This document shows, one piece after another, positions 24,901-27,900 of a stretch of DNA of 35,219 nucleotides (its first letter is position 1; every line of letters starts with the position of its first letter). The notes under the pieces are model-generated. The model was not told where the DNA came from and did no database searches. It saw only the letters and a program-made list of their open reading frames with translations. The position numbers and the translations under genes were made by a program. Origin of the DNA: a virus (lineage: Duplodnaviria; Caudoviricetes); the IMG/VR virus record IMGVR_UViG_3300004241_000316, positions 1-35,219 of that record; one strand, given 5' to 3'.

Positions 24901-27900
24901 AATAAGAGAGAGAGCAAAAAGAAAGAATCCGAAGAAAAACCAACAGTTTCACCAAAAGTCTTGTCTGATTACGGCATTGAAGTTAGAAAAACTAAAACGA
25001 ACAGGGGGAATGATGTATGGCATGTACCTACTAATGACAAAACAAAACAGTACGTTGATATATTCCATAAGCTTAAAGCCATATGGTACAAACCACATCC
25101 AAAGGCAAAAGCAGTATGGAGCTTTAACTATGATCCTACAGAAGTTCTACTAAAAGAATTGACAGGCAAAGAAGTAAAGGCTACTGAGGTCAATACCGAA
25201 AGAGAGAGCTATCCTGATAGCATAGACAACGATATTAAAAAACTATTCTATGATAATATGGGTAAGAACGAAGAAAAGGCACTAAGAGCCTATAATGATT
25301 TTATGAAGTCTTATCCCGATAATTGGCAAAATAACTTGATAAAAGGTAGAGTTGTAAAGGGAATACTTGCTAAGTATATCAATGACATGGAAGTTTTGGA
25401 AGACGTGTTCAATAAGCTTAAAGAAATGGATGAGTCTAACAATGCTAATAGGTACGGTAGCGACAATTATCTTGAACTTTTAAATATGGTAAGAACAAGA
25501 GTACTGACAGATGAATTTCTTAATAAGGTTGCGGCAAACCAAGATAATGACGAGCAAAATATGTTGATAGCTGTAGAGGACAAAATTAAAGGATATGTAG
25601 CAGAAGTTTTCCTTGAAAACATTGACAAGTCTAGCGGCAATTCTATTAATCAAATGCAGGAATATTTTAAGGATACTGCTGAAATCGCAAAGAGGTATCT
25701 AAAAATCTTAAAAGAAAATATTGTCAATAATCAGAAAACAGAGCATAATGAAGGTGAGAAGAAGGGCGCAGACACTAAGCCGAACGACAATACTGTTAAT
25801 CCGATTAAAAAGACACTTCCTGAAGGACCCGTTAAAAATAACCTTGCATGGCTCGATGCACAAGCTGAGTTAGCAAGACAAAGACTGAAAGATAGGCATA
25901 AAAATGTACGTCTTAATGCCGGACTTCCTATGGATGATTTAGTTGACTATTCAATCATTGGAGCAGACAAGCTTGCAAACGGAGTAGTAGACTTCGCAGA
26001 ATGGTCAAAGGAAATGCTTGAGGAATTTGGCGATAATTTAAGGCTGTTTCTGAGAGCTATATATGGACAATCAGAAGCTATGTTGGAAATGTCACCGGAA
26101 GATATACAGGAAATGTTTGAATTGGCTAACAAAGAGGATAATAATACTCCCAAAGAAGACACTCATAAGAGAACCGTTTCAAAAGACGGAAGGTTAAAAG
26201 TTGGTGACATTGTTAGATGGGAGAAAAACCAATCAATGTACGATGTACGCAGATACTACGATAAGGATTTTGAAATAATATCGTTTTCCGATGATTTTCA
26301 ACTAAACGATGTTGCAAGTTTAAGAGATTTACAGACAGGGGAATACCTTCACCGTATGATTGTGCGTTTTTTACAAAAGCAACAGGGAAATAAAAAGCAG
26401 ACAAATAACCCTAGTCAGAAAATAGCTGATGAAGTCAAGGAATCTCTAGGCAAAAATGAAACCATTAAAATAAATGAACTTATTGGTTGGGCAGAAGAAG
26501 CATACGGAAGCAAGCTATCAGAAGGCAAATATGACAGAAAGCAAGTCCATGATGCTATGGAACTTGGAGTAAATCAGTACTTGTTGGAGAACAGTAAGGT
26601 ATTAAATACAAACAATAAAGATATAAATGCAGTATTATCAAATATAGATATATTAAAGAGCCTAGTCGAATTGCTTCCTACTCAGACCAACCAAACACAG
26701 GAAATGAAAGACTTCCAACAGTTTTCTACTCCCCCGCATATAGCTTATGTAGCAGCTTTTGCAGCTAACATAGATAAAAATGATATTGCCCTGGAACCTT
26801 CCGCAGGGATAGGCGGCATAGCTACTTTTGCTAAGATCAACGGTGCTAAAGTTGTTGTAAATGAACTATCACAAAAGAGACTTGAAATACTTAAGAATAT
26901 GGACTTTGATGAAGTATATAACGAAAATGCAGAACACATAAATTCTATACTTCATGATAAAGTAAAGCCCACAGTCGTAGTTATGAATCCTCCATTTAGT
27001 GCAACAGCCGGAAGAATGGGAGATAAGAACAGCACTAAAAATGCAAAGGCACATATAGAACAGGCATTGGATATATTGCAAAATGGCGGCAGGTTAGTTG
27101 CTATAGTAGGCCAGGGGATGACGGATAATTCCAAAACTTTTGCTGATTGGTGGGAAAAGATAAAAGCAAAATACAATGTCAGAGCTAACATTCCCCTGTA
27201 TAACGCAGACCAAACTAGCAATATAAAGCATACTGATGAGTACAAAAAATACGGTACGACATTCGGTACACAGTTAATTGTTATAGATAAGACGGGATCA
27301 ACAGAAAATACATTAGTGGCAAATGAGCCAGACCTCAAAAAAGTAGTCAAATTACTTGTAAAGGAGGGAATTTACGATGATAGGCAAAGAAACATTGCAG
27401 GAGATCAGAAAAGCGAACCTGCATCCGATCAATATGATAGCAATGCAAAACCTGAGAAAACTGGAGCAAGTAATAGAGGACAATCAACTACACATGGCGC
27501 AACTAATGAGTTGGGGGATAGACAATCCGAAAGTGGAGCTTCCCGAGATAATGGGAGTAACCAAACCAGAAATGAAGGAAATGTTGGAAGGGATAATAGC
27601 AAGTCTCAACCAGAACCCAAAAACAGCAATGAAGTACCTAGTGTTGGAAGAAAACCCAGTGATACAAATATCGGATTTGAAGGACAAAAAGACAGCGAAG
27701 GAAGCAACCGAGTATCTCCTGGAGAAGGTAACAAGCAAACTGATCGAAAAGGGGATAATATTCAACAATCCGGAGGAAATGAGATACGAGAACTAGAAGT
27801 AAAAGTCAGTGGAAATAAAAGCAACGAGACTGTAGAAAAAGAGCTTGACGATTCTATTTATGATACCTATACACCTTCGAAGCTTGAAATTAAAGGAGCA

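Follow-up and report, generated by a model that had tools for sequence, protein, structure and literature searches.

The window, by which is meant the whole 35,219-nucleotide stretch of DNA analyzed here, is a 35-kb provirus record carrying terminase, P22-like portal, and major head genes, and its virion module closes with a gene encoding a giant polyvalent protein (Table 1). Within the giant, a helical N-domain precedes a methylase (MTase) in which the STPP and NPPF motifs are conserved, and these are followed by a linker, the two parts of a strawberry-notch helicase, and an LPD38 domain. Modeling of the MTase stretch with AlphaFold2 (pLDDT 92) yielded a structure with four N-terminal helices and a last helix (302-312) carrying the Shine-Dalgarno (SD) sequence of the nested gene described below; the model matches HsdM/TaqI-like methylases, including the type I M subunits 2okc, 3ufb, 5ybb, and 2ar0 (E about 1e-9 to 7e-8). 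The PG_binding_1 domain in the N-terminal part of the giant fits passage through the cell wall during ejection. Past two small genes, at about 34800-35219, the start of a lysin-like ORF ends after about 65 codons and, as judged by eye, is followed in another frame by a peptidoglycan-binding-like tail; this lysin gene is possibly broken or internally deleted.

Table 1. Positions of the features discussed (numbering of the window unless another locus is named)
Feature	Position	Strand	Remarks
Polyvalent giant of 4093 aa, closing the virion module of the provirus	21934..34215	+	
PG_binding_1 domain, N-terminal part of the giant	22288-22401	+	
N-terminal helical domain and N6-adenine MTase core (EPSAG; NPPF 26986-26997)	26431..27369	+	HsdM/TaqI-like fold; modeled stretch without target-recognition domain
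SD of the nested gene, AAGGAGG	27361..27367	+	Located where the last MTase helix ends
Nested +1 gene, 139 aa, modeled as all-helical, mildly acidic (net -4)	27377..27796	+	
Hydrophobe-poor D/N/S/G/R linker of the giant	27370..27903	+	Overlapped by the nested gene over its first ~140 codons
Strawberry-notch SF2 helicase, first lobe (Pfam AAA_34)	27904..28839	+	E 4e-122
Strawberry-notch helicase C-terminal domain (Pfam Helicase_C_4)	29362..30132	+	E 2.6e-87
LPD38 domain of phage-type polyvalent proteins, as described in PMC5512222	33313..33840	+	E 6.3e-33
R751 130-codon ORF taken to be traH	L227:24103-24495	minus	Missing from the record's gene table

Wholly inside the coding sequence of the giant, and in the +1 frame relative to it, lies an ORF with initiation signals of its own: an ATG at 27377, separated from the SD by a 9-nt spacer, opens 139 codons that end with a TAA at 27796. 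These positions, put forward in an initial annotation of the DNA, were verified in the sequence, and residue counts bear out its description of the giant frame over the same interval as poor in hydrophobic residues and rich in D, N, S, G, and R. Specifically, F, L, I, M, and V together account for 10 of the 100 giant residues in block 1801-1900 and 16 in block 1901-2000, as compared with 18-37 in other blocks. Read in the giant frame, the SD encodes K-E-G in the window and forms part of L-E-G-I-R-N-D in most relatives. Over 26400-28900, a Logan assembly, possibly of the source run, displays 0 base or indel differences from the window.

The stretch containing the nested ORF is the longest stop-free +1 stretch of the giant (144 codons), the runner-up being a basic stretch of 107 codons at 24830-25153 that has no SD-led start and probably arose by chance. 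Among three matches to an SD plus start within the giant, that of the nested gene is the sole out-of-frame one to open more than 13 codons. When the giant protein was held fixed and its codons resampled, the probability of an open +1 frame at the nested ORF was P=0.010, a value limited by the fact that just 7 positions are able to yield a +1 stop, and the window by itself therefore provides modest evidence for a nested gene. The initial annotation had also drawn on a scarcity of T at the third positions of the nested frame. That scarcity is real (10 of 139 codons) but carries no weight for the nested frame, because it is forced by the open giant frame: T is found at 0 of the 54 positions at which it would create a giant stop and at 10 of the remaining 85 (12%), the figure for the whole giant being 15%. 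The prediction that standard annotation would drop the gene holds for L213, the intact record checked, whose gene list has the giant alone in the linker, but not for metagenome gene callers, which do call such ORFs. Many of the nested-protein homologues found in metagenome assemblies come from short contigs.

Occurrence and conservation of the nested frame

Relatives were gathered from helicase-based searches (27 viral and 22 genome loci), from MTase alignments (the best 80 of 455 viral and the best 80 of 561 metagenome loci), and from plasmids (6 loci chosen by hand out of 612 matches). With 5 self copies removed, 178 of 214 loci contained both an MTase and a helicase, and 152 of these were distinct; the 36 left out comprised 32 with no helicase downstream (for the most part loci at contig ends or with distant MTases), 2 without an MTase, 1 with a divergent helicase start, and 1 without an anchor. 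When measured from a fixed MTase anchor to the helicase, the linkers of the 152 loci form two groups, one of 136 loci with at least 150 codons and one of 16 loci with 67-122 codons. Within the long-linker group, 134 of 136 loci contain a +1 ORF of 86-179 aa that starts 85-124 nt past the anchor, at exactly +88 nt in 88 of the 134, with ATG as start codon in 126 and GTG in 8; counting L102, in which the start is earlier, the nested ORF is present in 135 of the 136, the exception being L089. The nested stop is located 65-152 nt ahead of the helicase in 126 of 133 loci, and the other seven carry added linker behind it. Each of these seven additions (L031, L074, L098, L105, L159, L184, and L214) is 330-880 nt long and lies between the nested stop and the helicase, never within the nested gene.

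Among the 16 short-linker loci, neither a nested-type ORF confined to the linker nor a match to the family profile was found. These loci make up 16 of the 17 without the nested gene, and the catalytic motif NPP[FY] is intact in all 17, indicating that the enzyme can be encoded without the nested gene. Given that nearly all non-carriers have short linkers and intact motifs, it appears to be the nested gene, and not the enzyme, that accounts for the long linker. Searches of the flanks of these non-carriers revealed no substitute gene. In a set of 17 loci defined by distant (29-38%) MTases, no SD-led nested ORF was seen. As judged by record titles, the overlap extends across at least four bacterial phyla and is carried by phages of 35-100 kb as well as large plasmids, cultured carriers being a plasmid of Methylomonas sp. 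LL1 (NZ_CP064652.1), with the nested ORF at L213:6644-6985, and Rugamonas apoptosis LX47W, with the nested ORF at L051:3510-3887.

Several irregularities were observed among these loci. At L044:3419-3997 and L134:1522-2108, a frameshift in the linker sends the MTase ORF into another frame, so that in L044 it enters the nested protein in its C-terminal half. A single inserted base sets L134 apart from the near-identical L133, and an assembly error is therefore likely in this case. Large in-frame insertions split helicase motifs in L078, L080, L186, and L211 (Walker A region) and in L165 (Walker B region). All begin with Cys, those of the first four loci end in His-Asn, and all five resemble inteins.

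Selection on the nested frame was gauged against expected counts for which the codon usage of each locus was retained and its giant protein held fixed; as relatives and pairs are not independent, comparisons with these counts overstate significance. Across 135 loci, a fixed span of 70 codons, chosen without ORF selection, contains 5 stops in the +1 frame vs. 153.1 expected, and the +2 frame of the identical spans contains 745 vs. 567.5 expected. At the anchor-defined Asn/Asp codon (AAT or GAT), where a synonymous T creates the ATG, T is used in 86 of 87 cases (39.1 expected), and codons of the matching type inside the MTase, serving as a control, have T in 731 of 1629 (746.7 expected). The 5-nt core of the SD is retained in 98 of 133 relatives as compared with 32.0 expected under synonymous resampling. 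The pattern named in the initial annotation as evidence against the gene, namely homologous linkers with +1 stops and without an SD, did not arise. In 117 of 133 loci, moreover, folding of the start region is weaker than in synonymous controls. The codons flanking the nested start are rich in A, and farther than 10 codons upstream of it the synonymous bias is weak.

Conservation between loci is consistent with these counts. The expectation that the nested frame would be better conserved than the main frame was borne out in 37 of 39 pairs at 85-97% MTase identity, in which nested identity exceeds giant-linker identity (medians 0.65 vs. 0.47). Nucleotide identity at the first, second, and third codon positions of the giant is 0.67, 0.75, and 0.83 in the overlap and 0.90, 0.95, and 0.57 in the MTase; the third position is thus the best conserved in the former and the worst conserved in the latter. 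The nested protein itself diverges much faster than the MTase, with median identities of 0.31 and 0.24 at 75-85% and 65-75% MTase identity, respectively. That the ORF is a mere by-product, a hydrophobe-poor linker leaving the +1 frame open and L-E-G-I-R-N-D spelling an SD and ATG by accident, is very improbable: although synonymous resampling gives any one locus an appreciable chance of an open +1 frame (median 0.146; 0.010 in the window), and although both frames are at background at 65-75% MTase identity (nested ahead of giant in 282 of 543 pairs), the start-codon and codon-position results stand apart from that chance. Against such an origin argue the choice of synonymous codons at the SD and ATG, the shortage of stops, the inverted order of conservation among codon positions, the protein motif, and the confident fold.

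Taken together, the stop deficit, the T of the start codon, the SD core, and codon-position conservation strongly support the dual coding originally proposed. Judging from sequence comparison, the nested frame is under purifying selection with a selected start context, the nested gene is almost certainly real, and the ORF very likely makes a second, unannotated small protein.

The nested protein and its possible partner

The family core reads N-x-x-P-L-N-Q-x-A-x3-L ... L-Y-L-L-Q-L-x-x-W-G-L ... P-x-E-A-A, and in the AlphaFold2 model of the window protein, which consists of eight helices in a compact arrangement (pLDDT 93, pTM 0.86), the conserved positions (N14, P17, N19, A22, L26, Q42, L43, W46, P81, and A111) are mainly helix caps and core residues. 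Net charge is negative in 122 of 134 nested products, with a median of -8 and values of -10 or lower in 52; the window protein carries -4, and some members are basic (up to +7). The 139-aa product contains no cysteine. When scored with a profile of 149 sequences, 108 of the 134 products reach at least 20 bits, some of them by construction, and 26 fall below, the homology of these 26 thus resting on position alone.

Database searches provided relatives in number, the nearest database protein to the nested product being 63% identical. A profile of 28 members identified 885 clusters at 50% identity among 1.84 billion proteins, 197 of them at E 1e-10 or better. Searches against Pfam and PHROGs (38 members) and against NCBIfam and PADLOC (94 members) gave scattered matches in 1-3 members each, with no consistent PHROG family. 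Structural comparisons were similarly unproductive: the best E was 0.19 against PDB sequences and 1.1 in Foldseek searches of PDB and BFVD; the best hit of a wide VIA fold search had Z 4.3, rmsd 4.9, and 80 aligned residues; and the ESM Atlas gave no usable match. Negative outcomes of this kind are no proof of a new fold. Comparison with HsdS finds the nested model all-helical, comparison with the DNA mimics Ocr and ArdA sets against them a net charge of -4 in the window and a family median of -8, and in both cases fold searches gave no clear match. Derivation from the N-domain of the MTase was considered and rejected (probability 0.11%).

As to the search for stand-alone homologues suggested in the initial annotation, homologues exist in abundance, but every DNA context reached has the gene nested behind an MTase. 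This was also true of all DNA loci reached with the small protein as bait, three of which (L222, L223, and L226) were new. Genome samples of 401 and 401 contained 1 and 2 matches, respectively, centre genomes included. Homologues with N- or C-terminal extensions do occur (P0060, P0076, P0023, P0136, P0142, P0145, P0155, P0156, and P0049), P0060 consisting of two tandem copies of the domain, and the contigs of P0076 and P0023 measuring 146 kb and 20 kb, respectively. Some of the longer homologues, including P0060, P0136, P0142, P0145, and P0155, may be free-standing. When used as baits, P0076 and P0023 returned only nested loci of relatives, P0023 gave no plasmid match, and P0155 returned nothing. 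Longer fused forms numbered 0 among 7,988 scored candidates, which is weak evidence.

Genomic company offers some indication of the partner of the nested protein. The gene is found both in virion giants and in versions carried by conjugative elements. Specifically, 12 of the 135 loci have an ORF that opens only 133-157 codons before the MTase match, and in the Methylomonas plasmid the carrier gene sits behind traI, a coupling-protein gene, traF, topoisomerase III, and traD; what appear by eye to be similar transfer genes presumably lie upstream of several other short-ORF loci. Giants without the nested gene also exist (L050, L085, and L089). A FastTree phylogeny, with a midpoint root and some long branches, requires five changes of the presence/absence label, and on these data the gene is best read as gained or lost at least five times, mostly by loss within carrier clades. 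These distributions suggest that the nested gene is tied to the enzyme rather than to the virion.

One locus, L193, resembles a natural deletion. Here the nested gene (L193:3611-4033; HMM 65 bits) lies inside an ORF (L193:2194-6627) that retains the MTase and opens about 270 codons ahead of the match to it; the helicase is absent from the next 1,000 codons and from the upstream part of the ORF, the contig extending beyond the part examined. The reverse arrangement, a nested gene with a helicase and without an MTase, was not encountered among the loci examined. Together with the presence of the gene in both export systems, this deletion hints at the MTase as partner, in preference to the helicase or the virion. 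The L193 giant continues with other domains that include an HELGVH motif, which resembles a zincin protease site, and its C-terminus has no significant match to that of the window giant.

Other approaches to the partner and to expression of the locus were less informative. Mutual information between the nested protein and the MTase or helicase gave top pairs at z 4.9 and 5.4, on variable columns (94 rows, effective 72), and prediction of a complex of nested protein, MTase, and first helicase lobe scored 0.00 in two runs in which the controls did not fold. Neither an internal promoter nor a terminator was seen in 26800-28100. An internal restart for the helicase past the nested stop was rejected as a general feature, having been found in 1 of 133 loci.

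Of the functions considered for the nested protein, the one we tentatively prefer is restraint of the methylase: as a partner of the enzyme, the protein would hold it in check inside the producer cell and stay behind upon delivery. P1 DarB is described as packaged in the virion and protecting DNA in cis (PMC5512222, PMC9024508), and by analogy the giant may do likewise. The small protein would be made from the mRNA of the giant, as no internal promoter signal is seen, and probably in excess over it, being short and having a strong, unstructured start site. It would then bind the neighboring MTase, likely quieting the enzyme in the producer cell; the enzyme would enter the next cell by way of the virion or a conjugation pore, without its partner, and there become active, methylating incoming DNA as has been proposed for DarB-like proteins. 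Several considerations count against an inhibitor of this kind: the link to the MTase rests on a sole locus, L193; 17 loci encode an enzyme with intact motifs but no small gene; fast divergence would be odd for a binder of a conserved catalytic core; and the element would seem to benefit from having its DNA methylated in the producer, so that the need for inhibition is not obvious.

Less probable is the opposite role, that of a positive accessory or specificity subunit helping the HsdM-like core to engage DNA or the helicase, in the M-S-R gene order of some type I restriction-modification operons and in the manner of TraH with the TraI relaxosome. Such a role accords with the match of the MTase model to type I M subunits, with the end of the modeled stretch lacking a recognition domain, and with fast divergence, which suits a specificity part; the acidic TraH, encoded in another frame within traI, is described as stabilizing the relaxosome (PMC7314908). 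However, the predominantly negative net charge is unfavorable for DNA reading, and the repeated changes on the tree, together with the 17 loci that have intact enzyme motifs and no small gene, count against this role.

Similarly improbable is an independent counter-defence protein riding in the linker, for instance one that imitates DNA through its acidity or that blocks a restriction or defence complex of the host. The family is small, helical, acidic, fast-evolving, and dispensable, it is found on phages and conjugative elements, and its longer homologues may be free-standing. The modest charge of the window protein and the existence of basic members fit such a function poorly, however; a late virion operon would provide the protein at the wrong time to block restriction upon entry unless it were packaged; and all DNA contexts place the gene at one spot behind the MTase, though independent genes usually move.

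Somewhat more doubtful still is a chaperone role in folding or export, in which the protein would maintain the MTase-helicase in a soluble state fit for packaging or secretion. Precedent can be found in Ulx, described as a 17-kDa head protein that aids localization of P1 DarB and is encoded by an ORF adjoining darB (PMC9024508), and both kinds of carrier must export the enzyme through a narrow channel (PMC5512222). Nevertheless, the gene accompanies virion giants and the short conjugative versions alike, the export machines of which are unrelated, and giants without it exist.

Origin, significance, and known systems compared

With regard to origin, the balance tips slightly toward the small gene being the older, the linker of the giant having arisen by read-through upon fusion of the MTase and helicase genes. 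In favor of this order are the constraint seen on the nested frame, the position of the SD at the last helix of the MTase, and the shortening of the linker that accompanies loss of the gene. A more far-reaching proposal, which we regard as speculative, is that strawberry-notch methylase-helicases have a regulatory subunit that has been missing so far, in the form of an old family of small proteins, several hundred strong and widely distributed, whose helical fold is undescribed. Under this proposal the family predates the fusion of the two enzymes, survives only as a hidden frame read as a "linker", and acts as an inhibitor that stays behind, delivery switching the anti-restriction enzyme on.

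In bacteria and phages, few nested genes have strong comparative support. The overlap described here is maintained across phages and conjugative elements of several phyla, and what appears to be a disordered linker is the less constrained of two frames, which changes how linkers in giant polyvalent proteins are to be read and annotated. The gene layout is known already; the protein family, which is undescribed, adds an uncharacterized group (the 885 clusters noted above) with no detected fold match. It also gives a handle on the control of DarB-like enzymes before and after delivery, as one silent substitution would abolish the small protein without altering the giant.

Our literature search found no description of an overlap in the MTase-helicase linker, though subscription papers or supplements could hold one. 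Fast-evolving linkers that lie between two enzyme domains and overlap a better conserved protein are described for the polymerase spacer and surface gene of hepatitis B virus and for the linker and movement protein of apple stem grooving virus, and the review in question puts forward a de novo origin of the spacer over an older gene, by which the domains would have become fused (PMC8227390). These are small, size-limited eukaryotic viruses, whereas the gene described here sits in phages of 35-100 kb and in large plasmids. Among phages, the classic case is Rz1, described as fully embedded out of frame inside Rz and encoding the partner of the host protein (PMC9144972). The likeness lies in an out-of-frame phage gene fully embedded in another; the difference is that Rz and Rz1 belong to the envelope and feature a transmembrane helix and a lipoprotein signal, whereas the nested protein is modeled as a compact helical domain and its host gene encodes a DNA enzyme. 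An Rz1-type o-spanin was accordingly rejected, the host gene being an MTase-helicase and the 139 aa lacking cysteine.

The enzyme itself has a described counterpart in the methylase-helicase dyad of polyvalent proteins, of which P1 DarB is the archetype and the strawberry-notch form a subtype (Iyer et al., 2017; PMC5512222). With its helical N-domain, TP motif, NPPF, strawberry-notch SF2 helicase, LPD38 domain, and virion-gene context, the giant is, on domain content, a member of this subtype. Neither section 14 of that study nor a term search of its text yields any mention of an overlapping gene, and in P1 the accessory Ulx is described as the product of a separate gene that adjoins darB (PMC9024508).

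IncP plasmids such as RP4 and R751 are described as encoding a small acidic protein, TraH, in another frame within traI (PMC7314908). In R751 traI, a 130-codon +1 ORF with an AGGAG-type SD overlies a G/R/D-rich stretch with 14.5% hydrophobic residues, and is taken to be traH by position and size (Table 1); it is another nested gene dropped by annotation. Homology between the nested protein and TraH was rejected (hhalign probability 0.15% over 3 columns, family profile vs. R751 ORF). Although the R751 ORF has a cysteine-rich C-terminus and its host gene encodes a relaxase rather than an MTase-helicase, traH within traI, a small acidic gene fully contained in a large gene for DNA processing on a mobile element, provides the closest precedent for the layout described here.
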